A stretch of 36,611 nt of DNA from a virus (taxonomy: Duplodnaviria; Heunggongvirae; Uroviricota; Caudoviricetes), in the IMG/VR virus record IMGVR_UViG_2874956758_000004, positions 1 to 36,611 of that record. One strand, 5' to 3'. Shown here piece after piece: positions 11,078 to 29,253 of this stretch. The number at the start of each line of letters is the position of its first letter. Positions within the stretch are counted from its first letter, which is position 1. A program made the position numbers and the translations under genes. Below the pieces are notes generated by a model. The model was not told where the DNA came from, ran no database searches, and saw only the letters and a program-made list of their open reading frames with translations.

Positions 11078-11080
11078 TAT

Positions 11081-11296: not shown

Positions 11297-11588
11297 AGCC
11301 TCACCTCCGCAAATAACGGATGGCGTAGTTTTACACTGAGAAATGAAAGGGATTTGAAAAGAAAAAAACGCAAAAGCGGGCGAAACGATATATACAGTAA
11401 GGAAAGCACTCTATCCAACAAACCACCCACAGTTAATCGGAATAAAAGCAGAGTGCTTATGAATGATCGCACGCCCGAAGGTTAGTATTTCTGCACAGCA
11501 ATTTTGCAAAAAAAGGCGATCATTCATAACTTAAACGTCTTTCAGTCACTCCGGGATTTCCCATCATCGCAGACTGAAAGACTCTGAC

Positions 11589-11663
<75 letters not shown>

Positions 11664-11666
11664 ATA

Positions 11667-11742
<76 letters not shown>

Positions 11743-11744
11743 GC

Positions 11745-11821
11745 TGGCCCACCACCGAGGACTCGAACCTCGCACCGTCAACTTAGAAGGTTGATGCTCT
11801 ATCCGGATGAGCTAGTGGTGG
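11745..11821 (-). tRNA. tRNA-Arg (anticodon UCU, reads AGA)
   Basis: Reverse complement CCACCACTAGCTCATCCGGATAGAGCATCAACCTTCTAAGTTGACGGTGCGAGGTTCGAGTCCTCGGTGGTGGGCCA; perfect acceptor stem, anticodon loop CTTCTAA. Confidence 0.75.
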
Positions 11822-11822
11822 T

Positions 11823-11899
11823 TGGTGGCCCTTGCTGGACTTGAACCAGCGACCTGGCGATTATGAGTCGCTCGCTCTGACCAACTGAGCTAAAGGGCC
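11823..11899 (-). tRNA. tRNA with CAU anticodon, ileX-like (probable lysidine tRNA-Ile2 rather than Met)
   Basis: Reverse complement GGCCCTTTAGCTCAGTTGGTCAGAGCGAGCGACTCATAATCGCCAGGTCGCTGGTTCAAGTCCAGCAAGGGCCACCA; T arm and anticodon arm resemble remembered E. coli ileX. Confidence 0.75.
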
Positions 11900-11981
11900 G
11901 GAGGCAGAATAATAACCATATGTCATCACATCTGCAAACTCATCGTAAGCGTACAGCGAGGGCCGTATTGACGGGGATGTG

Positions 11982-13514
11982 TTATTCAGCTGGCAGTGCT
12001 ATGCGCCACGGAAGCAGTTCGCTGACCCGGTTGACCGGCCAGTCTGCTATGACGCCAAGCACATGGCGAAGGTAGCTTTCTGGATCCACGTCATTCAGTT
12101 TGCACGTCCCGATCAGGCTGTACAGTAGCGCTCCCCGCTCACCACCATGGTCAGAGCCGAAGAACAGGAAGTTTTTACGACCCAGACTGACCGCCCGCAG
12201 GGCATTTTCAGCGATGTTGTTGTCGATTTCCACCCAGCCATCGTTCGCATAGTACGTCAGTGCCGGCCACTGGTTAAGTGCGTACGCGAACGCCTTCGCC
12301 AACTCTGAGTGTCGCGACAGGGTCTTCATCTTTTCACGCAACCAGCTTTCCAGGGATTTCAACAGCGGTTTCGTTTTTCGCTGACGTTCAGCAAGCCGCT
12401 GCTCTGCCGGCATTCCCCTTATATCCGCCTCTATGGCGTACAACTGACCGAGCTGCTCCAGGGCTTCTTCCGTCAGTGCTGACGGGATGCGGACGTGCAC
12501 ATCGTGGATCTTTCGGCGGGCATGAGCCCAGCAGGCAGCTTCCGTTATCCCACCATTGCGGTACAGCTCGTTGAACCCGGCGTACGCATCCGCTTGCAGC
12601 ACACCGCTGAAGCAAGCAAGATGAGTCTGCGGATGGATGCCTTTTCTGTCCGGGCTGTAAGCGAACCACACTGCAGGTGCCAACGCTGACCCGGCATTGC
12701 GGTCATCACGAACATACGCCCACAACCGCCCGGTCTTCGTCTTCTTATTACCCGGCATCAGTACCTGGACCGGGGTATCATCAGCATGGAGTTTGCCGTC
12801 AGTCATGACATAGCCATGAAGCGCCTCTTCCAGCGGAGACAGCAGCCGGCAGCATGCATCCACCCAGCCCGACAGCAGTGAACGGCTCAGCTTCACACCT
12901 TGCCGGCCGTATATTTCTGACTGGCGATACAGCGGGGTGTGCTCTGCATACTTCGAGGTCAGCACGCGGGCCAGCAGCCCCGGTCCGGCGATACCCCGCT
13001 CGATGGGCCGCGAAGGTGCAGGTGCCTGCACGATGGCATCGCACTGAGTACAGGCATGTTTTTCCCGTACCGTCCGGATAACCCGGAAGGCACTACGCAT
13101 CAACTCCAGCTGTTCGGCGGTATCCTCGCCCAGATAGCTCAGTGAACCGCCGCAGTTCGGGCAGCACGGCGCCGCAGGCAACAGTCGCTTTTCGTCACGG
13201 GGTAGTGATTCAGGGAACGGCTTACGGGTGCGGGTCTGACGCAACGGACGCTGTACTGCCGGGTCATACACCCTACCAGTCAGCGTATCGCTCTCTTTCT
13301 GAAGCCGGTTCAGATCGGCTTCCATTTGTGCGATACGGCGGGAGACTTTTTCGGAACGACTGCCGAAGTTCATCCGGCGGAGTTTATCCAGCTGCGCCTG
13401 CAGATGGTCTATTTCGCGCTCCCGGTTGCTCAGCTTTTCCTGCAGGGCGTGGATCTCCTGTTCGGCCAGGCGCTGTTTCAGCAGGAAGATGTCGTCAGAA
13501 GAGATGTCGTTCAT
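11982..13514 (-). CDS. IS66-family transposase TnpC (orf3)
   Basis: 510-aa ORF with N-terminal coiled coil and CxxC zinc-finger segment (CCPNCGG…CTQC). Confidence 0.85.
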
Positions 13515-13563
13515 AAGCCCGTATTTTACCGGGCTTATTCTGTGACAACCAGGATAAAGAGAT

Positions 13564-13911
13564 TTACAGCATGGTCAGGGAGGTCAGCAGCCGCTTAGGC
13601 TGTCGCCAGTCGATACCTTCCAGCAGCATCGCCAGCTGCGCCTGCGTAAGGAACACTTTGCCATCACGGGCTGACGGCCAGGCGAAGCGCCCACGCTCCA
13701 GCCGTTTGGTCAGGAGGCACAGTCCGTCACCGGTGGACCACAGCAGTTTAACCTGACTGCCGCTGCGGCCCCGGAAAATGAAAACATGGCCGGACATGGG
13801 ATCGTCTTTCAGCGCCGTCTGTACTTTCGCAGCCAGACCGTTGAAGCCATTTCTCATATCGGTGATACCGGCAACCAGCCAAATTTTGGTCCCGGAAGGT
13901 AACGGGATCAT
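13564..13911 (-). CDS. IS66-family TnpB (orf2)
   Basis: 115-aa [34 protein letters not shown]… typical of IS66 orf2. Confidence 0.85.
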
Positions 13912-14309
13912 CGCTTCAGTTCCTGTATCAGCAGAGTCAGGAGCTTTTCGCTGACATTGCCATTGAAGCGGAGCGTCCCGTGCCGGAACGTTACCTCACA
14001 GCTGATACTGAGGGTTTCCGGGTCCTCTGCGAGCGATTCTGGCTGTTCGGCAGCTGCATCGAGAGTCACAGGAAGTAGCTGGGGGCTCTCTGAAGAAGGT
14101 AATAGCAGCTTTCCCTCGCGCCATTGTTGTCGCCATTTGAACAACAGATTGGCGTTAATGCCATTTTCAAGAGCAAGTTTTGAGATGGATATCCCGGGTT
14201 CACAGGAGGCAGCAACGAGCTGCTGTTTAAATTCGGGAGGATAATTAGGGCAGCCTTTTCGCCTGCCGGGAGTCACATTTTTCTGCATATCTGACACTTT
14301 GGTTCCCAC
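13908..14309 (-). CDS. IS66-family TnpA (orf1)
   Basis: 133-aa ORF, first of the three-gene IS66 arrangement. Confidence 0.8.
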   Translation of the reverse strand: MGTKVSDMQKNVTPGRRKGCPNYPPEFKQQLVAASCEPGISISKLALENGINANLLFKWRQQWREGKLLLPSSESPQLLPVTLDAAAEQPESLAEDPETLSISCEVTFRHGTLRFNGNVSEKLLTLLIQELKR

Positions 14310-14430
14310 TACTTATTGGTGGACACCACTTTGTCTAATTCGTCAGATTCTGACCAGACGGTTCAGGCTGTACGCTTACAACTCATCTGACCACCAGCGT
14401 GTTTAACGTCCTGTACCGTTTTTCAGGCAT

Positions 14431-14455
14431 AAAAAACCCGCCCGGAGGCGGGTTT
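14431..14455 (-). terminator. Intrinsic terminator downstream of Q (tR'-like)
   Basis: Minus strand reads aaacccgcc tccg ggcggg followed by TTTTTTAT. Confidence 0.6.
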
Positions 14456-14541
14456 AAGCTGTGTGGCGAAGCAACCACTCTTAACAGAATATCCCGTTTT
14501 TTACGTACGTAAAATATTTTCTAGAAAGTCGTCCCTTACCA

Positions 14542-14922
14542 TCAGGGATGTTCAATATATTTGTCCATTTCTAACCGGACACCCAACATCATCAACATTC
14601 CTTCCACCACCCCCTCGGCTTTTTGTAGCTTCTTTCCTATATAACCATCTGAGCATCCATGCTTCCGCGCCAGCGTCATGAATGTCATCCCAAACACGTA
14701 GTAGTCAACCAGCAAGTCATGTAGATCGTTGTTGTTCCGGTTAAGGCGGGCCATACACCCACATATAACCATCGCGTCATCGTCACAGCATTGCGGGCGG
14801 GATTTTACTTTTGAAGGGATTAATCCCTTAAAACCGGCAGCAATGGACGACCAGGTCACATCCTCATGATTATTAGCCACCCACGCGCCCCAGCGCTCAA
14901 GAACCTGCTGAATATCACGCAT
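14542..14922 (-). CDS. Q: Late-gene antiterminator Q (DLP12 QuuD-like); start taken at MRDIQQ
   Basis: [60 protein letters not shown]… matches remembered QuuD. Confidence 0.8.
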
Positions 14923-15118
14923 CACTGTCTTTACCCCTGTCCCATCCACGATGAACAATCAGAACACCATCAACAATGGCGTGCCCTTTGCCCTCTTTAT
15001 CTTCAGCATATTTTCTTACCGTGGCGCGATTACAGTTCAGCATTCGTGAAACTTCGGTCATATTACCTCGTGTCTGGATAAGCAGTTCCGGTATCGTTTG
15101 AATTTTGACGCTCATCAA
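14915..15118 (-). CDS. ninH: NinH-like DNA-binding protein
   Basis: …[57 protein letters not shown]… closely resembles lambda NinH. Confidence 0.75.
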
Positions 15119-15209
15119 ATACTCTCCGGTTCGGTGATTTTTATCCCGGGCTTTCCACCAGGGACATAATGATCGCGCACAAGCCAGGGCAAAACAAACT
15201 CATGGCGCA

Positions 15210-15467
15210 TCAGCGCAGCGCCTCCTGCACCAGTTTTTCAAACTTTCCGACTCTGGTTTCCAGCTCTGCCACACAGTCCACCAGCTCATCTACTGCTTTC
15301 TGTGCGCGATGCTTCGCCTGCATCAGTTCCCGAAGCGCGGGTACCATATCTTTACGGATAGCGTCTTTTGTTATGCCCGTTTTTTCGAGTTGTTCAGCAT
15401 GACGCAGCATTTCCTGCGCGTGTTTACGCAATTGTTCAGGGGTAAAAGTCATTGTCTGGTTGTTCAA
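15210..15467 (-). CDS. Hypothetical 85-aa protein (coiled-coil-like), nin-region position
   Basis: ORF ends 3 bp inside the DnaB-like gene start region; no family recognised. Confidence 0.4.
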   Translation of the reverse strand: MNNQTMTFTPEQLRKHAQEMLRHAEQLEKTGITKDAIRKDMVPALRELMQAKHRAQKAVDELVDCVAELETRVGKFEKLVQEALR

Positions 15468-16855
15468 AAGAAACGCTCCATCTTACTGCTGTCAGTTCGT
15501 TTATTACTGTATCTGCGCGGATTGCCGGGCTTCATGGGAGTGGAAAGCACCCGTGCACTTTCCTGGTCCACAGGCAGAAAATGTCCGTTATAAAAACGCC
15601 GGTAAATCGTTCCCAGAGAACCGTTACGTTGTTTCGTGATATTGATTTCTGCGATGCCCCTGGCCTGCGTATCCGGGTTGTACACTTCATCCCTGTAAAG
15701 CATCAGAATGATGTCTGCATCCGCCTCTATTTCTCCGGAATTTTTCAGGTCTGAGTTCATGGGACGTTTATTGGGTCTGGACTCCACACCGCGGGAGAGC
15801 TGGCTCAGCGCAATCAACGGAAAACCACCGGATTTTGCCAGGCCTTTAAGCCCCTTTGAGATTTCACCCACGGCAAGGTCATGACGCCCTGTGGTTCGGG
15901 TTTTTATCAGCCCGAGATAATCAACCACCACCAGCGCCGTTTCCGGATATTTAATCAGGTGGTGTTTCGTTGTTGCGCATATCTCATCAATGGCCAGGTT
16001 CGCCTGGTCCACCATCCAGATATTGCGCCCGGTCATCCGCCCCACCCCTTGTGAGAAACGCGCCCAGTCTTCATCTTCAAAGTGAGCCACAGATTTCAGG
16101 CGTGATACTGGCATCCCTCCAGCCGCAGACACCATACGTTCACCAATCTGGATGTTCGCCATCTCCATGGTGAACAGAAGCACACCATGCCCCTGCTCAG
16201 TCACCCTGTCGATGATGTCCAGCGCAAGTTCGGTTTTCCCCATCGAAGGACGGGCGGCAATGAATACCAGGTCTCCGGGCTCCATACCGCCTGTTTTTGC
16301 GTCCAGTTCATCAATACCGGTCATCAACGTCCTGGATTTCTCCAGCCCCTGATTCCGGCATTCAACACGCTCAACCACTTCCGGAAGCACATCATCAATA
16401 TGTACCGGCTGAATGACGCCCTTTCCTGTCGACAGTGTGACCATCATGTTCTGCGCATCCTTCAGGGCATCTTCAGCTGCTTCACAGGTATGCGCATCAC
16501 GTAATTTCTGCAGCGCCTCATTCAGTGTTTTTTCTGCATCGCGCAGTGCGGCATTGCGCCGCAACGCTGCAACATAGTGCTCCAGTGAAGACTTCACCCA
16601 GGTTTTACGCCCGGTATCAGTAATCACCGGGGCAAGTTCCGGCATCTCATTACACAACAGCACGGGGTCAATCACTCCTGAAACACGGGCCTGTCTGCAG
16701 ATGCCTGTATAGATATCCTGATACGCTCGTACAGAAAAAACGTCCGCTGGCAGTGTGGCCAGAATATCCATCACTTCAGGATCTGCTCCGCGCAGAAAGA
16801 ACGCGCCGATGACAGCGCCTTCAAGGTCATCGTTACGCCATACTGGAGTTGTCAT
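15464..16855 (-). CDS. DnaB-family replicative helicase
   Basis: 463-aa ORF with Walker A ARPSMGKTELAL and DnaB-like C-terminal domain. Confidence 0.85.
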   Translation of the reverse strand: MTTPVWRNDDLEGAVIGAFFLRGADPEVMDILATLPADVFSVRAYQDIYTGICRQARVSGVIDPVLLCNEMPELAPVITDTGRKTWVKSSLEHYVAALRRNAALRDAEKTLNEALQKLRDAHTCEAAEDALKDAQNMMVTLSTGKGVIQPVHIDDVLPEVVERVECRNQGLEKSRTLMTGIDELDAKTGGMEPGDLVFIAARPSMGKTELALDIIDRVTEQGHGVLLFTMEMANIQIGERMVSAAGGMPVSRLKSVAHFEDEDWARFSQGVGRMTGRNIWMVDQANLAIDEICATTKHHLIKYPETALVVVDYLGLIKTRTTGRHDLAVGEISKGLKGLAKSGGFPLIALSQLSRGVESRPNKRPMNSDLKNSGEIEADADIILMLYRDEVYNPDTQARGIAEINITKQRNGSLGTIYRRFYNGHFLPVDQESARVLSTPMKPGNPRRYSNKRTDSSKMERFF

Positions 16856-17739
16856 GCAGCCACACCTCTGATACGAGAACGGTAACTGGGCCAGTTAAAC
16901 GACAACCAGTTGCGTCCCCCGTCTGTGATCCTGTCGGCAATTCGGGGACTGATGAACGCCCACAACTCTTCCGGTGAGAGGTTACTGATCAGAATGGTGG
17001 GCAAGATACTTTCGTACCTGGCGTTGATAATTTCCTGCAAAATAGCCATTTCAGCCGCGCTGCCAAACTGAACGCCAACTTCGTCGATGATCAGCAAATC
17101 CATTGACGCATAACGCTCAATAACTTCATCCGCTGTTTTTTCGCTGTCATTCCGCCAGCAATTTTTCACAGCACGGGTAAGGCGCATCACGTCGGTGATC
17201 TCCACACTGGCCAGATAGTTACGGATGATGTGTTTTGCCATAGCCACAGCCAGATGATTTTTTCCGGTACCACAACTGCCGGTCATAACAAGACTGGTAC
17301 CGTTCTCCAGCATATCTGGCCAGTTCTCCGCATAGCGGCGACAGGCCGCAAGATTTCTGGCTGCGTCAGGATTAACCTCCAGATAATTATCAAACTCGTA
17401 GTCCCGAAAACGCAGGGCAATTCCGGCGTTATCAGTCAGCTCTTCCGCCTTGATGGACGACAGCTCCATGGTCAAATCGTTGGCCTCAGCGATTAAGCAG
17501 TCAGAGCAGCATGAAATTTTTTCTCTGTCCTCGCCATTACGATCGCTCCACACCAGTATATTCGTGTGATATTCGCCATGTTTTTCGCAATATCCGCGAC
17601 CTTCACGCATCAGGCAGGAACGATAAGGCCATGGCTTTTCGCCCTTCTGAGCAAATGCAATCTCTGCCCGTAACTCATCCATTCGCGCCTGTAGTCTTTT
17701 TTGTTGTTCACGCAGGTTAAACGTCATCATCGCTGTCAC
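16852..17739 (-). CDS. DnaC/IstB-like AAA+ helicase loader with Cys/His-rich N-terminal segment; likely start at the internal ATG after GAGG
   Basis: Walker A GSCGTGKNHLAVAMA, Walker B LLIIDEVG; stop of the upstream initiator frame overlaps its start. Confidence 0.8.
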   Translation of the reverse strand: MTAMMTFNLREQQKRLQARMDELRAEIAFAQKGEKPWPYRSCLMREGRGYCEKHGEYHTNILVWSDRNGEDREKISCCSDCLIAEANDLTMELSSIKAEELTDNAGIALRFRDYEFDNYLEVNPDAARNLAACRRYAENWPDMLENGTSLVMTGSCGTGKNHLAVAMAKHIIRNYLASVEITDVMRLTRAVKNCWRNDSEKTADEVIERYASMDLLIIDEVGVQFGSAAEMAILQEIINARYESILPTILISNLSPEELWAFISPRIADRITDGGRNWLSFNWPSYRSRIRGVAA

Positions 17740-18154
17740 CTCAGAATGTCAGTTTGTCACTGGATTTACCGAATTTGTCAGACATGGCTCCCAGGCCAGC
17801 CAGGACATCGACCTGTCGCTGTCGCCCACCTCCGGGAGCGGCTGGCTGTTGCCAGAATTCTTCGAAGTGACGATCAGGTCCAAAGAACGTCGCTGCCTGC
17901 TTCACGAACTGTGTGCCGTTATTTCCTGTAGCACGTATCTAGGCGGCATACCGCTTCACGCCATCAAGCATGGTCTCCGGTTTTATTCCCTCCCTGATAC
18001 GGGCTTTCCAGGCTTTGAAGGCTGCTGACTTGGAATTACCACCAGCACGTTTGGGATATTCCTGCCAGGCCTGTTCAAATTCCGGTGAATATTCCTGTCG
18101 GGCAGAACGCGCTGGTGCAGACGCGTCAGCGGATGCGCCAATAGTGTTTTTAGT

Positions 18155-18206
18155 CTCTGTAGTATTCTCTGAAGTAATCTCTGTTGTATTCTCTGTTGTA
18201 TTCTCT
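18155..18206. repeat. Tandem 12-bp repeats (about 4.5 copies) inside the initiator gene
   Basis: tctctgtagtat tctctgaagtaa tctctgttgtat tctctgttgtat tctctgtaag. Confidence 0.7.
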
Positions 18207-18220
18207 GTAAGATCGAAATT

Positions 18221-18335
18221 GGTTTTCCCTTCTCCGAGGCGAGGGGTTTCCCGTGTCCGCGGTGAAGGCTTTCCCTCCTCCGCGAAATTGGGTTTTACAG
18301 TTTCCCGAAAACGGGTTTCCCCATTTCGGGAAAAC
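18221..18335. repeat. Five dispersed GGTTTCCC-type repeats at 17-23 bp spacing inside the initiator gene
   Basis: ggttttccc, ggtttcccg, gctttccct, ggttttacagtttccc, ggtttcccc, followed by an AT-rich stretch. Confidence 0.6.
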
Positions 18336-18805
18336 TGATTGTTTTCATTGATAATTTCATTAAGGCGCTCACAATCTATACGGTAGAACATTTTGTGCTC
18401 AAGACGCTTGTTGGTTTCAACCAAAATGCCTCTGGACACAAGATGCTTACGCGCTACAGCCTGTTGTTCAAATGTAAGTCCGGTTTCGTGTTGTATCTCT
18501 TCACGCGTTTATGTACGCCTTCCGCTGCATGTGCTTTATCCTGCCAGTAAAAAATCTTACCAAAGAAAATAACAGCGTGCGGACTTCCCATGTATTTAAC
18601 GAGCCCAGGGTAATAAGCAACCGGATGTCCAAAATCGAGCAGAAGATCAGACGGACGCATAGCCACCTCCCAGGCGTTTAAACATTTTCCCGGACTGAAA
18701 CACCACCAGTGGGTAACTGATGGTGTAGCTACGCCCCAGTAATTCACACACAACTTTCTGGTTGAGGTGTACTGGCAATAGCGGACACTACCATTTGTTC
18801 TTTTT

Positions 18806-19624
18806 TTAAGCAGCCATCTGATGATATTTTTCCCTGAAGGCTGCCGGGGAGATATTCCCCAGACGAGAGTGACGACGCTGACGATTGTAGAAAATCTCAA
18901 TGTATTCCCGTATTACTGAGATGGCTTCATCCCGGTTATTAAAACGATAGTGGCTCAGGCTCTCATTTTTCAGCGTTCCCCAGAAGCTTTCCATCGGAGC
19001 GTTGTCGTAACAGTTACCTTTACGCGACATTGATGTTTTCAGACCAGACTGCTCCTGTATGACCCGGTAATCGTATGCGCAGTACTGTGAACCTCGATCA
19101 GAGTGGTGGATTAGCCCGGCAGGTGGGCGCTGGCTCCTGAGCGCCATAAACAGGGCTTTACCTGTCAGCTCTTTTGTCATGCGCTCTCCCATGGCGTAGC
19201 CGACAATTTCGCACGTATAAACATCTTTGACGCCGGCGAGATACAGCCATCCTTCCCGGGTGGCAACATACGTTATATCTGCGACCCAGACCTGATTAGG
19301 TGCTGTGGGCGTAAAGTTCTGATTCAGCAGATTCGGCGTAACCGGCAGATTGTGGTCTGAGTTTGTGGTCGCCCTGAATTTGCGTTTCTGCTTACAGTGC
19401 AGCCTCAGCTCCTTACGAAGACGTGCCAGTCGGTCACGACCAACGATGATGCCATTCTCTGCCAGCTCCGTCTGGAGCCGCCGGGTTCCATATGTTTCGC
19501 GAGTGCGGATATGTGCCACCTTAATCTCCAGTTTTAGCCGCTCATCACTTTGTTTTCTGTCTGAGGGTTCATGCTGTACCCAGTTGTAATAACCGCTCCT
19601 GGATACACCAAATACCTGACACAT
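18806..19624 (-). CDS. IS600 OrfB, intact reading frame (272 aa)
   Basis: MCQVFGVSRSGYYNWVQHEPSDRK…HSDRGSQYCAYDY…YHQMAA with no internal stop. Confidence 0.85.
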   Translation of the reverse strand: MCQVFGVSRSGYYNWVQHEPSDRKQSDERLKLEIKVAHIRTRETYGTRRLQTELAENGIIVGRDRLARLRKELRLHCKQKRKFRATTNSDHNLPVTPNLLNQNFTPTAPNQVWVADITYVATREGWLYLAGVKDVYTCEIVGYAMGERMTKELTGKALFMALRSQRPPAGLIHHSDRGSQYCAYDYRVIQEQSGLKTSMSRKGNCYDNAPMESFWGTLKNESLSHYRFNNRDEAISVIREYIEIFYNRQRRHSRLGNISPAAFREKYHQMAA

Positions 19625-19920
19625 CGCTTCAACAGGGAATTGTTGTCGCCATTGTTCGACTAACGCGTATTTTTCAGCGACTCCTGGGCAAAATACGCTG
19701 TTGTAGATTCAATCTGTCAATGCAACACCCCTTTCAATTATCTCTTTCGGTGTTTTGAACTTCAGTGTCTTTCTCGGTCTGTTGTTTAGCTGAGCAGCAA
19801 CCAGATCTAGTTCATGTTGAGTATATTGGGCAAGACATGTCTTTTTAGGAAAGTACTGCCGAATTAGCCCATTTGTGTTCTCATTTGTTCCCCGCTGCCA
19901 AGGACTCTGAGGATCGCAGA

Positions 19921-21525
19921 AGGGGATGCGGACGATTTCCTGGACTGCTTTATCATTCCAGCCCGCATTGTTGGCGGTACATTTCAGGGCTGACTGCACC
20001 CAGCGATAATTTTATACGCCGCTCGTTATACCATCTGATGTAAGCATCTACATGCTGCATGAACTTTTCTGGCGTGATGCCCGACCATTTACGCCCATAA
20101 TACATTTCCGTTTTCAGTCTGCCGAAAAAGCCTTCGCATGCAGCATTATCAGGTGAACATCCTTTACGGGACATTGAGCGAATAAGACCTGCTGCATTCA
20201 CTCTTTCCAGCCAGCCTGGCCAGCGATAATGCCCACCTCTGTCACTGTGTATCACCGGTCGTTCGCCAGCATTTAACGTTTCGACAGCGCTATCCAGCAT
20301 AGTGTTGACCAGTTCAGCATCGGGGCGTGTACTGAGAGACCAGCTCACAACTTTTCCATCGAAGCAGTCCACCACCGGTGACAGCCAGACTTTACCTGCA
20401 GGGAGCTGGAACTCCGTGATATCTGTCAGCCATTTCTGATTAGGTTGCTCCGCCTTAAAATCTCTGGCGATAAGGTTATCCGGAGCCGGTCCGATTTTTC
20501 CGCAATATGAGCTGTAGCGGCGCCGACGGTTACGGCTGACGACAAGCTGTTCCTCCACCATAAGTCTGCGTACAACCTTTTCTGATAGCCGAACCCCCTC
20601 ATGCCTGAGCATCGCATGCAGGCGACGATAGCCATAACACTGGTAATTACTGTTAAATATATCTGTCAGCATCGTACGTATCGTGGCGTATTTATCACCG
20701 GCTTTCAGGGCAGCCCGGTGATAAAAATAACTGCTACGGGCAAGGCCCAGAACATGCAGTAATTCTGTCAGGGGATATGTTTGTCTCAGGGCATCAGCGA
20801 TCTTTGTTTTTTCTCTGTTGTTCAGGTGACTGATACTGATGCCCGGGTCTTTTTTTATGATTTCCTCCGCCTTTTTCAGAATATCCAGCTCCATCTGCCG
20901 GCGGCGTATTTCCTGATTCAGTCGGGCGACTTCCTCCCGCAACGCATCGCGTTCTGCCTCCAGGGAAGGTTCGTTATGTTTACGCATAGTCTGGTAAGCA
21001 CTGTTGCCGATAATTTCATCTTTCCATTTATACAATACCGCACGACTGACACCAATACGCCTGGCGATTTCACTGGCTGATACTTGTCGTGTACAGAGTG
21101 CCATGACAGCCTGACGTTTGACTTCTGGTTCAAAGGGCGCAACCGGGTTGGCCTTACTGGTAAATATACGTCGTCTGTCGGGATAAAGTTCATTAACCCA
21201 GCGAGCGAGTACATCAGTGCAGGGATAACCCAGGGCTCTGCTGGTAAACGCCAGGCAGCAGCCGTGGTTAAGATAATGTTCAACGGCAACCTGTTTTTGT
21301 TCATCGGAGTAACGGTGCTTATGACGAATAGATTCTTTTGCGCCACCACCTGCTTCCCATGAGCGGATCCAACGCCGCAGATTTCTTTTCGAAGGGTAGC
21401 CCAGTTCGCGTACGACGGGAGCCAGCTTCTTACCATATTTGAAATAAAGCTCAATGGCGCGGATTTTTTCTTCTTCAGTAAACATGTGTTATCTCCTGAG
21501 AGTCCAGGAAATCGTCCGCATCCCC
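19921..21525 (-). mobile_element. IS3-superfamily element (1605 bp), 25-bp perfect terminal inverted repeats, 3-bp target duplication
   Basis: Ends GGGGATGCGGACGATTTCCTGGACT / AGTCCAGGAAATCGTCCGCATCCCC; gaa at 19918-19920 and 21526-21528. Confidence 0.8.
19953..21485 (-). CDS. Single-ORF transposase, 510 aa (two N-terminal HTH-like segments plus integrase-type DDE domain)
   Basis: …WLTDITEF…, …HSDRGGHYRW…, C-terminal …SLGAVSPEMYRQQ typical of IS3-family OrfB, fused to an OrfA-like N-terminus with no frameshift. Confidence 0.75.
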   Translation of the reverse strand: MFTEEEKIRAIELYFKYGKKLAPVVRELGYPSKRNLRRWIRSWEAGGGAKESIRHKHRYSDEQKQVAVEHYLNHGCCLAFTSRALGYPCTDVLARWVNELYPDRRRIFTSKANPVAPFEPEVKRQAVMALCTRQVSASEIARRIGVSRAVLYKWKDEIIGNSAYQTMRKHNEPSLEAERDALREEVARLNQEIRRRQMELDILKKAEEIIKKDPGISISHLNNREKTKIADALRQTYPLTELLHVLGLARSSYFYHRAALKAGDKYATIRTMLTDIFNSNYQCYGYRRLHAMLRHEGVRLSEKVVRRLMVEEQLVVSRNRRRRYSSYCGKIGPAPDNLIARDFKAEQPNQKWLTDITEFQLPAGKVWLSPVVDCFDGKVVSWSLSTRPDAELVNTMLDSAVETLNAGERPVIHSDRGGHYRWPGWLERVNAAGLIRSMSRKGCSPDNAACEGFFGRLKTEMYYGRKWSGITPEKFMQHVDAYIRWYNERRIKLSLGAVSPEMYRQQCGLE

Positions 21526-22423
21526 GAAGTAAACTTTAACGCTGGTGCTGACAGTAAATTCTAGATGTCTGGCCAGTTCCATTCCTCTGTCCCATGTCAG
21601 TGATTTTCTGAGTTCTGACGGTAAACTCAGGAATTTGTCGGTAAGAGCCTGATTTACTGAGACAGAATCTTTGCCCCTGAGTCTAAGGATGATCGTATAA
21701 CGTGATTTTCGGTCTACAAGTGTGGCTATATGAGAGTTTTTTGTACCTGAGACTAAATCGCCCTCCCAATGTCCCAGAGAGCGTCTGTTATCGATATTTC
21801 GGGAACGATCGTGAATTGGTGTTCCGTTCACTATGTTAATCGTACCTCTTTCGCCTTTGCGGGTATGACGCCTGCCATGGCGAAGGCTATGCGACCGTCG
21901 CAGATGCTGTATATTCAGGTGGTGTAGCGCTTCACGGCTACGAAAGTACAGCGTTTTATAAATTGTCTCAGGTGATATTCGCAGCGTTTTTTGACGTGGT
22001 TTTGTTCGCCTTAACCATCCTGATATTTGCTCTGGAGACCATTTCATCTCCAGCTTTTCCAGAACAAGCTTTCGCAATGGTAAATTTTGATCCAGTAAGC
22101 ACGGTTTTGGCCTTTTCGCCATTCTGTTGGCTCGGTTATTAGCATCAACAGCTTTGTAATAGCGTCTGCCCCGATTACGCTGAACTTCACGTGAGATCGT
22201 CGAAGGACTGCGATTCAGCGCAGTAGCTATCGCACGAATGCTCATTTTGACTGACAAACCAGCTCGTATCTCCTCGCGCTCAGACAGTGTCAGGTGAGCT
22301 ACAGCCCGCTTACGCTCATGGGGTTTTATGCCGCCAGTATCCCTTAACATAGTGAAGATCGTTCCGGGTTTTGAACCCAGGATATTCGCTATTTCACTGA
22401 AGCCTGTTCCGTTCTTCCATAGT

Positions 22424-22792
22424 TCAAAAACAGAGGCTTTTTCCTCTGCTGTAAATGTTCGTCTCATTCAAAAAACCTCCGCAACCCCATGTTTTCACAT
22501 AACTGTTGCGTTGACCAATTGAATCTACAGTTGCTTTTTTTAATATATCTCGCTCAAGGCGAGCTTCATTTAACGCCTTACGCAGTTGCAGAATTTCAGA
22601 TTCCAGTTCAGCCACCGTGCGGGAACCAGGAGTACCGAGCCCTTTTCTGGCGGCGGTAACCCATTGTCCTAAAGTGCCTTCAGGAAGGGATAATCGGGAA
22701 GCGCCTTCACTGATCGAAAGTTGATTTTCAAGAACCGTTCTGACAGCTTCGGCTTTGAACTCTTTAGAGTAACGTTGGGTTTTTCTGCTCAT
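22424..22792 (-). pseudogene. IS600 OrfA (copy 2), 3' end displaced by IS30
   Basis: Same 122-aa translation as copy 1. Confidence 0.8.
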
Positions 22793-23125
22793 TATTAGCT
22801 CCTTCTGATGCCATTCTATTTCAGGAAGGAGTGTCCGTTAAACTCAGGCTACCTCAGTCGGCAGTTTTGTTCCATCACGTCTTCCTGCATCAACGGGCAA
22901 ATATGTTACTGTTGCTGGAATATTAACAACAGTCCAATGCCACCAACCACTGCCTGTAGGTGCATCTGGATCATATACAGTTACGGCAAAGCTTTTGGTA
23001 CCTTCAGGGACACCAGACCAGGTTAATGAGGGCGATGTATTACCACCTTCACACCCAAATCCAGAAAAGACATGAGACGTTGTAAGTTGCTCTCCTGTTT
23101 TTATTTCATTACTAGGCTGTGTCCC

Positions 23126-23641
23126 TTAATTACGTAAGCGTTGATAAAAGAGTCGGATGCAGCCCAGTTTCACCATCGCCAGGTAATTTCTCGCCGTTTT
23201 GTCGTAACGCGTGGCGATGCGGCGATATTCTTTCAGCCGCCCAAAGCACCGTTCAACGACATTACGATTGCGGTACGCATCACGATCAAGCTGTGCACGT
23301 CCATCCGATGCCATTTTCTCATTTGACTTTCGGGGGATTACTGCCTTTATACCGTTATTTTTCAGCTCGTTGCGCAATGCGCGCCCTGAATACGCTTTAT
23401 CAGCCAGTACCGCATGTCCACGGCGTTTCATGCTGCCGTTCTGACGCTGAACGCCAATCCCGTCCAGAAGTCGTTGCGCGAACTGGCTTTCATGAGCTTG
23501 TCCGGGGCTTAGCACGATATTTAACGGGAGGCCACTTCCGTCTGTTGCCAGATGGATTTTGGTGCCAAAACCGCCGCGAGAGCGACCCGGCCCATTATCT
23601 CCGTCGATATCGGGATGTTTTTTTGAGCACCGGCGGCACAT
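23126..23641 (-). CDS. IS5-family transposase, C-terminal ORF (DDE region), overlapping the N-terminal ORF
   Basis: 171-aa ORF overlapping the upstream ORF by about 120 bp in another frame. Confidence 0.65.
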   Translation of the reverse strand: MCRRCSKKHPDIDGDNGPGRSRGGFGTKIHLATDGSGLPLNIVLSPGQAHESQFAQRLLDGIGVQRQNGSMKRRGHAVLADKAYSGRALRNELKNNGIKAVIPRKSNEKMASDGRAQLDRDAYRNRNVVERCFGRLKEYRRIATRYDKTARNYLAMVKLGCIRLFYQRLRN

Positions 23642-23970
23642 TTCAGCGCCCGGATATTACTGCCATCCAGCGCGGTGGCAGACCAGTCAATAAAGCCGTT
23701 TGCATCAAGTAGCGAAAGCAACCTGTTGAAAATAATATTAATCACGCCTGACTTTGACCATCGGTTAAAGCGGTTATAAACAGTTTTCCATGCCCCATAT
23801 CGTTCGGGTAAATTGCGCCATGGTGCACCGGAACATAACACCCAGAACATGCCATTGATGATTTTACGGTGCTCAGCCCATGGGCGTCCGGCCCGTGGTG
23901 TGGCGGGTTCAGGAGGTAACAGAGGCTTGATTATGGTCCATGCCTCATCGGGAAGGTCGTAGCGAGCCAT
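23521..23970 (-). CDS. IS5-family transposase, N-terminal ORF
   Basis: MARYDLPDEAWTIIKPLLPPEPATPRAGRPWAEHRKIINGMFWVLCSGAPWRNLPERYG…. Confidence 0.7.
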   Translation of the reverse strand: MARYDLPDEAWTIIKPLLPPEPATPRAGRPWAEHRKIINGMFWVLCSGAPWRNLPERYGAWKTVYNRFNRWSKSGVINIIFNRLLSLLDANGFIDWSATALDGSNIRALKCAAGAQKNIPISTEIMGRVALAAVLAPKSIWQQTEVASR

Positions 23971-24710
23971 AGTTCAATCTGTTGTGTAAACAGACAGTTA
24001 CTATAGCTCAGATGATTAAGGGACACAGCCTAGTGACCTGAAATGCTGCAGCCTGCGCAGAAAATGTTATGAATGCCAATACAGTTGAAACGATAAGTGT
24101 TTTCATAAAAACCTCTTTGTTATGACCTATCGTTATTTTATTTGATATTCCTTTATCTCATTATGCATAAAGGCGCAATGTTCATGCAAAAGCAATCACA
24201 ATTGTACCCCCAACCCAATTATTTGCCACAATATACACAAAGCACATTGATACTATTAAAAACTCTGCTTTATTATTAGTAATACCTACGAAAGTCGGTG
24301 TTATTTTTTAACCTACCATTCAAAATACGTGACATACACCATTTTGCTCATAATAATTTGTCACGTATTTTCAGTATTTGAATCTGCGACCAAGAGTTCT
24401 CACCTAACAAATGATTAAGATTGTATAGCTCATTTACTACCCCAATACAGCCGTACAAAACTCGCTTGTGGGAGCAAACAAAGTAATCACCCATTAAGTT
24501 TCGTTAAAGATAATTAATTCTGTCTTGCACTTTATCATCAGTGCATAACTTAAAATCCAAGATCATTATTTAGAAATAAATCTCACCATCAACCATATAT
24601 TTGAGAGCACTTATCGCCTGCTGGGCGGATATTACTTTCATTAAAGGATAGTGTTTACAAACAATGCCATTCATAAAATATGATATCACAGGTTTTATTA
24701 TCCGTATTAA

Positions 24711-25194
24711 TTATGATTTTTCGAATGTTTTATAGGCAAGTGTACGGCATAACTCTCGTCCATTTTTACTGGTTAAGTCAATAGCATAAAAATCACTGAA
24801 TGAATTTACACCTTTACTCTTCAAAGTTTTCAATGATACCGAAGCCCTTCGTAATTCCTTATCTAATAGTCTTATTTTCTCTGCTATAGCGGTAACTTCA
24901 GGCGCGACAGACAATGCAACGATTAAATTATTAATTTTCATCTGAAGCTCAATAATTTTTAACTCTAAAGTTTCATTAGCATCTTTCTTGTTTTCAACTG
25001 GTTGAATTTTGCTACAATTAAAAAGCAATTGATTAATGATATTATAATCAACCAAATCTCTTTTTATTGATGGCCTGTCACATCGATGTAATCTTCTCAT
25101 CGGACAAACATAATAGCCATGCAAACTTCCAGATACCGCATGAACAATCATAGTATTACCACAAGCCTCACACTTCATAACTGTTCGAAGTAGA
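24711..25194 (-). pseudogene. C-terminal fragment of a serine recombinase (DLP12 ybcK-like), 5' part replaced by IS2
   Basis: Zinc-ribbon-like CEACGNTMIVH…YYVCPMRRLHRCD followed by coiled-coil region; the ORF reads straight out of the IS2 terminus. Confidence 0.6.
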
Positions 25195-25285
25195 TAGACT
25201 GGCCCCCTGAATCTCCAGACAACCAGTATCACTTAAATAAGTGATAGTCTTAATACTAGTTTTTAGACTAGTCATTGGAGAACAG

Positions 25286-25651
25286 ATGATTGATGTCTTA
25301 GGGCCGGAGAAACGCAGACGGCGTACCACACAGGAAAAGATCGCAATTGTTCAGCAGAGCTTTGAACCGGGGATGACGGTCTCCCTCGTTGCCCGGCAAC
25401 ATGGTATAGCAGCCAGCCAGTTATTTCTCTGGCGTAAGCAATACCAGGAAGGAAGTCTTACTGCTGTGGCCGCCGGAGAACAGGTTGTTCCTGCCTCTCA
25501 ACTTGCTGCCGCCATGAAGCAGATTAAAGAACTCCAGCGCCTGCTCGGCAAGAAAACGATGGAAAATGAACTCCTCAAAGAAGCCGTTGAATATGGACGG
25601 GCAAAAAAGTGGATAGCGCACGCGCCCTTATTGCCCGGGGATGGGGAGTAA
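25286..25651 (+). CDS. insC: IS2 OrfA (InsC)
   Basis: As other copies; one substitution (QHGIAAS). Confidence 0.9.
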
Positions 25652-26514
25652 GCTTAGTCAGCCGTTGTCTCCGGGTGTCGCGTGCGCAGTTGCACGTCAT
25701 TCTCAGACGAACCGATGACTGGATGGATGGCCGCCGCAGTCGTCACACTGATGATACGGATGTGCTTCTCCGTATACACCATGTTATCGGAGAGCTGCCC
25801 ACGTATGGTTATCGTCGGGTATGGGCGCTGCTTCGCAGACAGGCAGAACTTGATGGTATGCCTGCGATCAATGCCAAACGTGTTTACCGGATCATGCGCC
25901 AGAATGCGCTGTTGCTTGAGCGAAAACCTGCTGTACCGCCATCGAAACGGGCACATACAGGCAGAGTGGCCGTGAAAGAAAGCAATCAGCGATGGTGCTC
26001 TGACGGGTTCGAGTTCTGCTGTGATAACGGAGAGAGACTGCGTGTCACGTTCGCGCTGGACTGCTGTGATCGTGAGGCACTGCACTGGGCGATGACTACC
26101 GGCGGCTTCAACAGTGAAACAGTACAGGACGTCATGCTGGGAGCGGTGGAACGCCGCTTCGGCAACGATCTTCCGTCGTCTCCAGTGGAGTGGCTGACGG
26201 ATAATGGTTCATGCTACCGGGCTAATGAAACACGCCAGTTCGCCCGGATGTTGGGACTTGAACCGAAGAACACGGCGGTGCGGAGTCCGGAGAGTAACGG
26301 AATAGCAGAGAGCTTCGTGAAAACGATAAAGCGTGACTACATCAGTATCATGCCCAAACCAGACGGGTTAACGGCAGCAAAGAACCTTGCAGAGGCGTTC
26401 GAGCATTATAACGAATGGCATCCGCATAGTGCGCTGGGTTATCGCTCGCCACGGGAATATCTGCGGCAGCGGGCTTGTAATGGGTTAAGTGATAACAGAT
26501 GTCTGGAAATATAG
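25609..26514 (+). CDS. insD: IS2 OrfB (InsD)
   Basis: As other copies; one substitution (HWAMTTGG). Confidence 0.9.
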
Positions 26515-26525
26515 GGGCAAATCCA

Positions 26526-26694
26526 ACACCGTTCGCCAGACCTTACCATCAACGACCAGGATTCCTGCCCGCGCCATTTTAGCCGCAGCCTGATTTATGC
26601 TGGTTACGGTTGCGCCTGTTACCGCGGCAACGTCCTGCGCACAGAAGTTCTTATGAGTCCCCAGGTAATGAATAATTGCCTCTTTGCCCGTCAT
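26526..26694 (-). pseudogene. ren: ren, 3'-truncated by IS2
   Basis: MTGKEAIIHYLGTHKNFCAQDVAAVTGATVTSINQAAAKMARAGILVVDGKVWRTV matches remembered lambda Ren N-terminus, then runs into the IS2 end. Confidence 0.75.
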
Positions 26695-27392
26695 ACCCTT
26701 GCTCCTTTCAGCCCAAACTTAGCTTTGATTTCTGCGATCTTCGCCAGAGTCTGTGCACGATTTAGAGGTCTACCGCCCATGACAGGAAGTTGTTTTACTG
26801 GTTCAGGTATAGCCTCACCACGGTTAATTCGTGCGGTCATACAGGACAGTTCATCGGCAGCCTTGCGCCGTAATTCCGCGTCAGTCAACGCATTGGCCCG
26901 CATGTTCTGATACAGGTTGGTAACCAGCCAGTAGTGCGCGTTTGATTTCCACGGATAAGACTCTGCATCCGGATACAGCCCGCGCTTCCGGCAATACTCG
27001 TAAACCATATTAACCAGCTCGCTGGCGTTTGGCAGCCCGGCGGTAACGGATGCTTCTTCCTGGCACCAGGCGACAAACTGCCCGGGTGATGGCAGGAATG
27101 GTCGATTCTGCCGACGGGCTACGCGCATTCCTGCGTTAACCTGTTCCATTGTGGTGATCCCGTTTTCCCGGAAAGCCAGAACCCACTGGCGGCGGATTTC
27201 GTTCAGTTCATTCTGGTCACGGTTAGCCAGGCTCGCCGGGAAAGTTGCCAGTAACTGGCTGAACACACCGTTGATGATCTGCGCTACCTGCTGTACCTGT
27301 GGCTTTTCGTCGTACTGTTCCGGCATGTTGTTGGCGATCCGGCGCATCTGCTCACAGTCAAAGTTAACCATCTGTGCGGCGATGTTTTTCAT
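26691..27392 (-). CDS. P: Lambda-type replication protein P
   Basis: 233-aa translation MKNIAAQMVNFDCEQMRRIANNMPEQYDEKPQVQQVAQIINGVFSQLL… near-identical to remembered lambda P. Confidence 0.9.
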   Translation of the reverse strand: MKNIAAQMVNFDCEQMRRIANNMPEQYDEKPQVQQVAQIINGVFSQLLATFPASLANRDQNELNEIRRQWVLAFRENGITTMEQVNAGMRVARRQNRPFLPSPGQFVAWCQEEASVTAGLPNASELVNMVYEYCRKRGLYPDAESYPWKSNAHYWLVTNLYQNMRANALTDAELRRKAADELSCMTARINRGEAIPEPVKQLPVMGGRPLNRAQTLAKIAEIKAKFGLKGARV

Positions 27393-28223
27393 AGCTCCAC
27401 CCCGTAAATCCAGTCAGTGTTCGTCAGGTCGAGTTTTGGTTTGCCGGCTGTCACGCCAGCCTGTTGCTTGTTTCGGTTGATTTCGAGCTGGGTCCACTTG
27501 TCGCGGAGTTTGGCCGGACTTAGCACGTTACCGGACCAGAAGTTGTCCTGGCATGCCCAGCGGAACAGCACGCACATGTCGCGGTGGTTACGTCCGTCAC
27601 GTTCACGCATCAGGCGGATATCGTTAGCCCACCCTGCAAAATTCGGTTTTCTGGCTGATGGCGCGATGGTCTTCACCATGTCAAACATCCACTCTGCGGC
27701 GGTCAGGTCTTCTGCTGTCCCCCACTTGCTGCCGCTCTGAATTGCAGCATCCGGTTTCACCACAGGAAGATCGTTTTCTGGTTGGTCAGAGGATTCGCCA
27801 GAATTCTCGGACGAAAAAGGTTTTATATTGTCTTTTGTTAGTTTGTCTTTTGTGTTTACCTGATTTGGGTAATGTTGACCATTCACTGACCACATTATTA
27901 ATGCCGGTATTCCGCCCGCTCTGAATAAAAATCCCACGCTTTACCAGAACACTTTTTGCAGCAGAACACTTGTGCGGCAATATCCCGGTTAATTCGGAAA
28001 GTTGCTCGTTGCTAACCCAATCCAGTTTTTTATTAAAGCCATATGTTTTGCGCATGACAGCCAGAAAGACCAGAAGCTGGTGCTGTGTTAATCCGGCCAG
28101 CATCACAGCTTCCAGCAACTCATTTGCAATGCGCGTATAACCATCATCGAGATCTGCCACGCGCGGCTCCTTTTGTGCCGCATCCGGCACTGGAAAATTG
28201 AATATCTCAGCAGTGCTTGCCAT
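27389..28223 (-). pseudogene. O: Lambda-type replication initiator O, N- and C-terminal domains in different frames
   Basis: N-terminal domain (…PRVADLDDGYTRIANELLEAVMLAGLTQHQLLVFLAVMRKTYGFNKK…) stops at 27786; lambda-identical C-terminal domain (SSENSGESSDQPENDL…WIYGVEL) is in another frame. Confidence 0.7.
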
Positions 28224-28309
28224 AATTCCTCCCGCAATGAGTGTGTTACGATTTGCACCTGAAAGTCGGTTCTGTTCCAGCAGACCGGCTTTCGCCATTT
28301 CTGAACCTG

Positions 28310-28849
28310 TCATATCGCCCCCAGCATGGTAGTAACCATCGCCATCAATGGACCAGCCAGATCTGGGTCCACACGAAACATCGACACAATACCTTCACTA
28401 ATTTCCTTCAGTTTCTGGTGGCGTGGTGCGTTGAGAATGACAGCCTGTTTTGCCTCACTGAGTTCCTTTTCCATTTCAGCCAACCTAGCCATGAAGCTAT
28501 CCTGCTCAACCAGGTAACCGCGATATTCCAGCGGTAGTACCGCCAGAATTGCCGGGGTCAGTTCACGCACGTTATTTCGGTATTTTTCAGAATCGAATTT
28601 GTTATCGAGGAAGCGGAACAGCTTCTGGCGTGCACGGCTGACATCATCAGGGAAATCGATGGTGCCGCCACCCTGCTCCCGATACTCATTCACAATGAGT
28701 GTGGCAACGACATCCTGATTATCTACAGCCGACCAGGCGCGGACGGCATCACGGATTTTTTCGTGGCCTGGCACCTGTTTTGTTTGAGAACGATTTATCA
28801 CCGCAGTCGGGCTAAATCCGCTAGTCTGTTGGTATGTAAGTGGTTGCAT
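28310..28849 (-). CDS. YdaT-like protein (Rac-prophage type) at the cII position
   Basis: …VATLIVNEYREQGGGTIDFPDD… and …LTPAILAVLPLEYRGYL… resemble remembered Rac YdaT. Confidence 0.5.
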   Translation of the reverse strand: MQPLTYQQTSGFSPTAVINRSQTKQVPGHEKIRDAVRAWSAVDNQDVVATLIVNEYREQGGGTIDFPDDVSRARQKLFRFLDNKFDSEKYRNNVRELTPAILAVLPLEYRGYLVEQDSFMARLAEMEKELSEAKQAVILNAPRHQKLKEISEGIVSMFRVDPDLAGPLMAMVTTMLGAI

Positions 28850-28918
28850 AATTGACTCCTTTAGTTTGAATTGACTGTTAAGTTGATTGCTTATTGTTAA
28901 AGAGCGTGAAATGGAAAT

Positions 28919-29149
28919 TTAAGCTGCGTTCTTTTCGGTGTGTGGAAACAACTTCGGAAGATCCGGGCGAATCTGGTATGCCTTCACTACTCTACCAGTA
29001 GCCGTAACAATGCTGCCGACATGTTCAGGGGATACCTTTGCTTTGTTGTGAAGCCACTTATAGACGGCCTGCTGTGAAACTTCGCAAGCAGCGCCCAGTT
29101 TCTTTTGTGAACCAACGATATTGATCGCTGTTTTGATAGCTGGGTTCAT
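28919..29149 (-). CDS. Cro/YdaS-like HTH regulator
   Basis: 76-aa ORF MNPAIKTAINIVGSQKKLGAACEVSQQAVYKWLHNK…, divergent from the cI-like gene. Confidence 0.65.
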   Translation of the reverse strand: MNPAIKTAINIVGSQKKLGAACEVSQQAVYKWLHNKAKVSPEHVGSIVTATGRVVKAYQIRPDLPKLFPHTEKNAA

Positions 29150-29253
29150 AACAACCTCCGTGGTTAATTTGAATCAAGATTAAAACTATGGTTGTTTTTA
29201 GCCAACAACCATTCTCGCTTGATGGAATAAAACCTTGGTTGTACATTTAGACT
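29150..29253. promoter_or_regulatory. Divergent cI/cro promoter-operator region
   Basis: Perfect palindrome ATGGTTGTT-tttagcc-AACAACCAT at 29188-29212, with further AACAACC / GGTTGT half-sites at 29150 and 29236. Confidence 0.6.

Follow-up and report, generated by a model that had tools for sequence, protein, structure and literature searches.

Two replication modules with decayed initiators at a probable IS-joined boundary of two lambdoid prophage remnants in Shigella dysenteriae

The region analyzed here is very probably a place where two distinct, degenerate lambdoid prophages of a Shigella dysenteriae chromosome abut, linked by an insertion sequence (IS); the replication initiators of both have decayed. 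We refer to the whole stretch of 36,611 nucleotides as the window; 21.4 kb of it shows 100% identity to Sh. dysenteriae CP026831.1, the assembly of which (GCA_002950055.1) is named as that species in PMC9830988. As a preliminary description of this DNA had recognized, two unrelated replication modules are present: a lambda-type O-P pair at 26691-28313 (PF04492 and PF06992) and an initiator/DnaC-like/DnaB-like module at 15464-18660 (phrog_270, phrog_50 and PF03796), with all elements of both on the minus strand. The distance between them, given earlier as 9 kb, measured about 8 kb, and nothing lies there except insertion sequences and broken cargo of DLP12. The two dead initiators are a product of ordinary genome decay and not the mark of a phage built with two replication systems.

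In the second module, the loader and helicase genes are open. The DnaB-like replicative helicase (15464..16855, minus strand; 463 aa) is full length and stop-free, and its length is that of the homologue in L002, an E. coli locus with a lambdoid prophage. It matched PF03796 (E 4e-72), PF00772 (E 2.4e-5) and phrog_19 (E 2e-114), and also TIGR00665 (E 1e-91), though under that model's curated cut-off. The DnaC/IstB-like helicase loader (16852..17730, minus strand; 292 aa from an ATG at 17730) is matched over its full length by the L002 protein, with hits to PF01695 (E 4.5e-16), phrog_50 “DnaC-like helicase loader” (E 8e-88) and, scoring under the curated cut-off, the DnaC model NF005931 (E 1e-36). 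The initiator (17741..18660, minus strand) is a pseudogene. Alignment of both initiators of the window to intact homologues pinpointed their lesions, and this one, compared with the intact 302-aa L002 protein, carries a 1-bp frameshift (AAAA to AAA at 18508-18510), a TGG-to-TAG change at 17939-17941, both already suspected, and an in-frame 12-bp repeat gain near 18200; the linker of the gene contains 12-bp tandem repeats (18148-18207) and GGGAAAC-like motifs. The initiator had no Pfam or NCBIfam model match, but the intact homologue matches phrog_270 “replication initiation protein” (E 7.5e-66) and the fragments in the window match the same PHROGs. Where IS600 cuts off this prophage, a phrog_1153 gene survives as its 3' half (18647..18763, minus strand), with nt 118-234 the sole part of the L002 gene still present; the intact version matches phrog_1153 at E 2.6e-42. 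Of the initiator's lesions, the 1-bp loss from a homopolymer and the nonsense change are what broke it, and the control region upstream of it has been lost.

In the lambda-type module, replication protein P (26691-27392, minus strand; 233 aa) is equal in length to its E. coli homologue, matches PF06992 (E 7e-62) and aligned over 702 of 702 nt, with no gaps or stops, to P of L001, an E. coli DLP12-type locus. As the preliminary description had it, this gene is open, as are those of the loader and helicase. P lies directly downstream of O, and its start overlaps the O stop codon (ATGA at 27389-27392). O itself is a pseudogene with an origin remnant (27389..28313, minus strand). It had been described as having its domains out of frame, and there are indeed two ORFs in different frames, an N-terminal one at 27786-28313 (PF04492, E 3e-34) and a C-terminal one at 27389-27937 (phrog_277 “replication initiation O-like”, E 1e-86), but the damage is greater than that. 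Alignment to the intact 339-aa O of L001 revealed a single 95-bp deletion, and four of five iterons, the sites that O binds, are gone with it (the intact O homologue matches TIGR01610, E 3.8e-23). The five iterons of L001 are spaced 19-29 bp apart; in the window none is repeated, and the deletion junction is a 17-bp stretch at 27856-27872, the sole remaining palindromic iteron, beside which the A/T-rich stretch is retained (~27823-27852). The window is therefore short of the four or more inverted-repeat iterons that, with an A/T-rich stretch, would make up an origin in O, and the 95-bp deletion leaves no continuous frame linking the N-terminal domain to the C-terminal, P-binding domain. With one iteron left and the frame shifted, origin and initiator were lost in a single event, and because 95 bp is not a multiple of three, O is destroyed in trans as well. 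We attribute the loss of the 95 bp to recombination or replication slippage between the first and the fifth iteron.

Two of the lesions sit at classic error sites, one a homopolymer and the other a tandem repeat array, and the preliminary description had allowed that the frame changes might be sequencing errors. We give practically no weight to the possibility that errors of sequencing or assembly produced the frame changes and the stop codon in initiators that are really intact. The 1-bp deletion and the TAG of the second initiator are identical in four assemblies (CP026831.1, GCA_031665835.1, GCA_053979295.1 and Logan SRR364092), two of those four, GCA_031665835.1 among them, share the O deletion, and a TGG-to-TAG substitution is atypical as an error. 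The lesions are thus not read errors, because they recur in independent assemblies.

The two parts of the window match different prophages. Positions 22855-35090 are collinear with L001 (intD, emrE, ybcK, ybcL, rusA, quuD), and positions 9150-18763 with the other lambdoid prophage, that of L002. The first part, prophage A, is a DLP12-type cryptic prophage, reading from right to left int, exo, bet, gam, kil, cI, cro, ydaT, O, P, a ren-like gene, ybcK and ybcL. The second, prophage B, is an Stx-phage-like remnant with the initiator, DnaC-like loader, DnaB-like helicase, ninH, Q, tRNAs, lysis genes, a tail-fibre fragment and an ipaH effector gene. A single prophage would have one integrase, one immunity region and contiguous phage DNA between one pair of attachment sites, which here would lie outside the window or at its edge, whereas these halves meet at an IS600 copy with unrelated flanks.

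Prophage A has the gene order of DLP12-type E. coli prophages (in which emrE may stand between ren and ybcK), 97-99.6% nucleotide identity in collinear blastn blocks to L001, and the same O N-terminal domain, P family and location of the origin inside O. It has, however, decayed much further. It contains three copies of IS2 and one IS5-family element; it lacks emrE; only truncated forms of ybcK, ybcL and the ren-like gene remain; frameshifts affect cI and kil; the array of iterons in O is collapsed; and beyond ybcL everything has given way to IS600 and the other prophage. Prophage B resembles Stx-converting phages such as the complete phage Stx2_EH2201 (48.7 kb), with 90-92% nucleotide identity in all three module genes across 24 phage records, the same order of module genes followed by Q, tRNAs and lysis genes, and a type III effector gene beyond the tail fibre, which is nleC in the Stx2_EH2201-type phage and ipaH in the window (IpaH model, E 4e-170 at 1293-3044). 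The helicase is followed downstream by an 85-aa gene, ninH and the antiterminator Q (14542..15467, minus strand), each of them intact, with Pfam matches and 100% identity to the L002 CDSs. Unlike these phages, the window has an initiator pseudogene, an IS66-family element beside the tRNA cluster and, for this prophage, no immunity/early-left region, stx/head/tail region or integrase.

The seam at 18764..22856 is an IS600 that carries a nested IS30, itself split by a 1,604-bp IS3-family element (19922-21525) that is missing from GCA_031665835.1. IS3 and IS30 transposase models matched here, and the names IS600 and IS30 were taken from the RefSeq annotation of locus L009 mapped to the window. 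Prophage B ends inside the phrog_1153 gene on one side, and DLP12 ybcL ends on the other. Both IS600 ends are present and their 3-bp flanks differ (GGT versus GTC), so there is no target duplication. The adjoining DLP12-type cargo remnants (22855..25195, minus strand), identified by blastn against the L001 CDSs, are ybcL, split by an IS5-family element (23116-24029; IS5 transposase model), and the 3' part of ybcK (24570-25195), which has a stop in the reference frame. An IS2 copy (25195..26525, plus strand; TnpB model NF006918, E 4e-219), of which further copies lie at 4077-5407 and 30199-31529, cuts short the ren-like gene (26526-26694) and stands in place of emrE and the 5' part of ybcK; emrE had no match in the window. 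Two mid-gene ends at IS600, together with unlike flanks, identify the join as an IS-associated rearrangement and not a product of phage recombination. We infer an IS600-mediated deletion: at least one rearrangement at an IS600 copy would have joined A to B, costing A its late part and B its early part. We did not find the ancestral unjoined arrangement, so the number and order of the IS events can only be inferred.

The same seam bears on whether a single recombinant hybrid lambdoid phage integrated with both modules, its initiators decaying afterwards. Lambdoid order and orientation do continue across the junction, from the early genes of A and O-P to the replication genes of B, Q, lysis and tail fibre, and a genuine hybrid would have shown an equal gene order before decay. 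Mosaicism is also a trait of lambdoid phages, and module B is 100% identical to L002 in the Q-ninH genes and 97-99% identical in the replication genes. We nevertheless consider such a hybrid improbable, since its junction would not be expected to be an IS600 with unrelated flanks, no target duplication and a gene cut mid-sequence on either side, nor would the DLP12 cargo genes ybcK and ybcL lie between its modules. Every intact relative examined has one module, O-P only in L001 and module B only in Stx2_EH2201. The B remnant also occurs in Shigella flexneri, where O-P is not its neighbour, and none of 5,426 complete E. coli genomes had both modules spanned at one place. The earlier proposal of a fusion of two prophage lineages therefore stands insofar as the two are physically joined; given the IS600 seam and the single-module relatives, they form neither one prophage nor a recombinant phage.

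An IS-made junction of two remnants is one instance of a pattern already known, that of Shigella ipaH islands and IS-driven reduction. In those islands, too, a degenerate lambdoid prophage full of IS2, IS600, IS30 and IS66-family elements has ipaH at its tail-fibre end, and we saw no substantive difference from them in the window. IS-mediated pseudogene formation, rearrangement and IS expansion are among the features of Shigella described in PMC8072062.

Decay also extends to genes outside the replication modules. In the DLP12-type immunity region (28310..29942; PF06254 and alignment with L001), a ydaT-like gene (28310-28849) and a cro-like gene (28919-29149) lie on the minus strand, and the cI-type S24 repressor on the plus strand (29254-29942) is frameshifted by the loss of one G at 29417, leaving HTH_3 and Peptidase_S24 on two separate ORFs. 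The kil gene has lost 32 bp and is frameshifted. Besides the initiators, breakage or loss has reached cI, kil, ybcK, ybcL, emrE and the ren-like gene, and IS copies number about nine. That the initiators are dead while their partner genes are open is thus nothing special, as many other genes are broken too; about six small lesions fall over about 30 retained genes, two of them in the two fairly long initiators, which is a mild enrichment only (rough estimate p ~0.03-0.1).

We compared codons in the open genes. The loader and helicase differ from the Shigella flexneri copy at 1 synonymous and 7 non-synonymous codons and from E. coli prophage L002 at 24 synonymous and 4 non-synonymous codons, and between P and its nearest intact relative there are 1 synonymous and 3 non-synonymous changes. 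On these counts, the open loader and helicase genes look neutral. Domestication of P and the DnaC-like and DnaB-like genes for the host would account for all three being full length, and for the loader and helicase being open in the Shigella flexneri remnant too, but the differences between the Shigella copies give no sign of purifying selection, P shows the few changes counted above, and the upstream promoters and immunity regions are destroyed. We regard domestication as very unlikely; the three genes are probably open merely for want of time and not through use.

In the classical lambda ori- alleles r93, r96 and r99, small deletions within the iterons leave the reading frame and O function intact. 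The O deletion in the window resembles such origin-defective deletions in that a loss between iterons inside O abolishes the cis-acting origin; it differs in being natural, in affecting the whole array (five to one) and in not being a multiple of three. We found the five-to-one collapse on three distinct haplotypes, which differ at 56-82 sites in 2.46 kb. Each of the two E. coli collapsed alleles has 100%-identical relatives that keep an intact array, and the O allele of the window is 8 substitutions from an intact-array allele. Judged from these haplotypes, the same collapse arose independently at least three times. Collapsed arrays are found in only 2 of ~2,370 E. coli copies. Array-length variants of the O iterons also occur.

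In lambda, the origin lies inside O and comprises four 18-bp iterons and an A/T-rich stretch; a trapped, derepressed lambda fragment kills the cell by origin firing (replicative killing), and survivors (RK-) carry initiation-blocking mutations (PMC3349717). Neither replication module in the window would be able to fire. This loss of initiation may have been tolerated or favored because of replicative killing, as origin firing from a trapped, unrepressed prophage would be lethal, the cI of A is frameshifted and B is without an immunity region. The O iteron array could be a recurrent deletion hotspot, offering one-step silencing of origin and initiator in a grounded prophage and favored by selection against replicative killing after repressor loss, but we put this forward only tentatively and think it rather unlikely. 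Purely neutral decay, with both initiators hit by chance and no selection, is a stronger candidate, though somewhat short of an even chance. Many other genes are broken in both remnants, the open replication genes evolve neutrally, and IS expansion and pseudogene formation are among the traits for which Shigella is known (PMC8072062). Set against it, though not decisively, initiation has been lost in every copy examined and by different routes, namely three lesions in the window and, in Shigella flexneri, an insertion sequence that removed the whole initiator; the collapse of O and its origin has arisen more than once independently; and replicative killing is a known selective pressure.

The practical weight of these findings beyond correct annotation is small: an apparent single prophage with a pair of replication systems would be two IS-fused remnants in a decaying Shigella genome. 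The O deletion provides a clean natural example of how intragenic origin iterons may act as a deletion hotspot that removes origin and initiator together. The iteron count in O would be a cheap test of replication competence and could help to predict prophage inducibility.

The window matched CP026831.1 (assembly GCA_002950055.1) at 100% identity across 21.4 kb, and this assembly is Shigella dysenteriae in a published comparison (PMC9830988). In keeping with a Shigella source, a full-length ipaH gene, for a type III effector of the E3-ligase kind, lies at 1293-3044 (NF046045, E 4e-170). Using two annotated E. coli loci as references, L001 and L002, we found that the window splits into two unrelated prophage remnants. 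Prophage A (22855-35090, then an integrase gene at 35469-36611) is collinear at 97-99.6% identity with the DLP12-type locus L001, whose gene order is int, exo, bet, gam, kil, cI, cro, ydaT, O, P, a ren-like gene, emrE, ybcK and ybcL. Prophage B, an Stx-phage-like remnant (9150-18763), is collinear at 98.7-99.9% identity with L002, a different lambdoid prophage, which carries in order a phrog_1153 gene, initiator, ATP-binding loader, helicase, an 85-aa gene, ninH, Q, four tRNAs, holin, lysozyme and Rz. The tRNA cluster downstream of Q lies at 11589-11899 in the window (Gly, Thr, Arg and a CAT-anticodon tRNA, Ile in the relative's annotation), with an IS66-family element (11945-14379) inserted directly beside it. 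Left of the collinear block are a tail-fibre fragment (5405-6463, PF08400) and, past it in a low-GC stretch (38%), ipaH.

Family matches confirmed the two replication modules named in the preliminary description, and its account of their state was borne out. In the lambda-type module, P is full length (26691-27392; PF06992, E 7e-62) and O is divided between two ORFs, one N-terminal (27786-28313; PF04492, E 3e-34), the other C-terminal (27389-27937; phrog_277, E 1e-86). In the second module, the DnaB-like helicase (15464-16855; PF03796, E 4e-72) and the DnaC/IstB-like loader (16852-17730; PF01695; phrog_50, E 8e-88) are open, and the initiator (17741-18660) is broken. Its intact 302-aa homologue had no family match in Pfam or NCBIfam and was identified by PHROGs only (phrog_270, 'replication initiation protein', E 7.5e-66).

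Alignment to intact homologues located the lesions. O carries a single 95-bp deletion relative to the intact 339-aa O of L001. In the second initiator, an A4 run is short by one A (18508-18510), TGG has become TAG at 17939-17941, and there is an additional in-frame 12-bp repeat unit near 18200. The 12-bp tandem repeats (ACAGAGAATACA-like, 18148-18207) code for the TENTTE linker of this protein, and the E. coli homologue has one unit fewer. Either they or GGGAAAC-like motifs nearby may form the origin of the second module. The initiator frameshift and TAG are identical in three more assemblies of the region (GCA_031665835.1, SRR364092 and GCA_053979295.1) and the O deletion is likewise present in the first of these, so sequencing error is ruled out. 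We also rejected programmed frameshifting or stop-codon readthrough: homologues are single-frame by the thousand, and set against them the window shows a 95-bp deletion, loss of a base from a homopolymer and a nonsense substitution.

The two modules had been taken to belong to one prophage in which two lineages had fused. Two unrelated prophages do meet here, but they do not form one prophage: the seam is an insertion sequence flanked by cut genes, with no phage backbone between the modules. Prophage B breaks off at 18763, within the phrog_1153 gene. Next comes a complete IS600 (18764-22856), and at the far end of this element a ybcL of DLP12 type is truncated. An IS30 is nested inside the IS600 and is itself split by a 1,604-bp IS3-family element, which GCA_031665835.1 lacks. 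Right of the junction, an IS5-family element splits ybcL, only the 3' part of ybcK remains, emrE is lost and IS2 truncates the ren-like gene. A second, inverted IS600::IS30 copy lies at 6476-8962, so that nested copies flank the prophage B segment on both sides; the same nesting occurs near iha and sat in a uropathogenic E. coli island. The 3-bp flanks of the junction IS600 are unlike (GGT and GTC), and neither equals those of the second copy. A junction made by simple insertion, or by a single inversion via the inverted copies, was rejected because the four flanks do not pair in direct or inverted orientation, and several events are therefore needed.

Nor do the modules normally co-occur in related prophages. 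L001 has O-P alone; L002 has the second module alone, as does the complete 48.7-kb phage Stx2_EH2201, in which the effector gene nleC lies past the tail fibre in the cargo position that ipaH holds in the window. In Shigella flexneri SFBU1023 the same remnant B, with 99.7% identity over the stretch between Q and the loader, does not adjoin O-P. No locus covering both modules was present in 5,426 complete E. coli genomes. The preliminary observation was right and its interpretation half right. With the helicase as query against genome contigs, most matches were distant DnaB genes, chromosomal or phage-borne, of unrelated bacteria; only L011 and the S. flexneri locus L012 were informative.

Decay is general in the window. 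The cI-type repressor of prophage A (29254-29942) has lost one G from a G-run at 29417, setting its HTH apart from its S24 peptidase domain; the kil homologue has lost 32 bp, a deletion with a 7-bp direct repeat at its borders (31938-31944); and several further genes are truncated. The E. coli relative also has a DUF7946 gene and an N6-adenine methyltransferase gene, both missing from the window. A pressure against initiation is known: when a trapped lambda fragment loses repression, its origin fires in the chromosome and the cell dies, survivors being mutated to block initiation (PMC3349717). By analogy with such replicative killing, given the broken repressor in A and no immunity region in B, loss of initiation would at least be required for the remnants' persistence.

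Initiation was lost in every copy, each by a different route. In S. flexneri an insertion sequence takes away the initiator gene except for its last few bases; upstream of the loader there (L012, 6031-7890) is a 619-aa ORF, cut by an insertion sequence and unrelated to the window initiator, which by eye resembles a primase-type protein carrying an intein-like insert. Taken together, the window's loader and helicase show 24 synonymous and 4 non-synonymous codon differences from the E. coli L002 copies, and 1 and 7 from the S. flexneri copies. Domestication of the two genes was rejected on this 1:7 ratio, and they show no purifying selection since the Shigella copies split. That the initiators are dead and their partner genes open probably does not mean much.

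The lambda origin inside O comprises four 18-bp iterons and a 38-bp A/T-rich stretch (PMC3349717), and Stx phages have six iterons (PMC7466680). The intact O of L001 shares the lambda architecture, with five palindromic iterons (TTTACC-N7-GGTAAA; spacings 23, 24, 19 and 29 bp) and then an A/T-rich stretch. One iteron is left in the window; its left flank is that of iteron 1 and its right flank that of iteron 5 (17-bp junction, 27856-27872), indicating that one recombination or slippage event took four of the five O-binding sites; since 95 is not divisible by three, the same deletion frameshifts O. The five-to-one collapse, with the same 925-nt O pseudogene as its product, also occurs in 2 of ~2,370 E. 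coli genomes having this O type (L007 and L008, both at 4630-5554), which are unrelated. Over 2.46 kb, 56-82 sites separate any two of the three collapsed alleles; the window allele is only 8 sites away from an intact one. Both E. coli alleles have many 100%-identical relatives that keep the intact array, so the collapse happened at least three times independently. Array length also varies in other ways: some arrays are 23 bp shorter, and others 38 bp longer, than one with five iterons. The region is an ordinary case of prophage decay driven by insertion sequences in Shigella, and its one useful detail is that deletions recur at the iterons inside O, a hotspot where origin and initiator are killed together.
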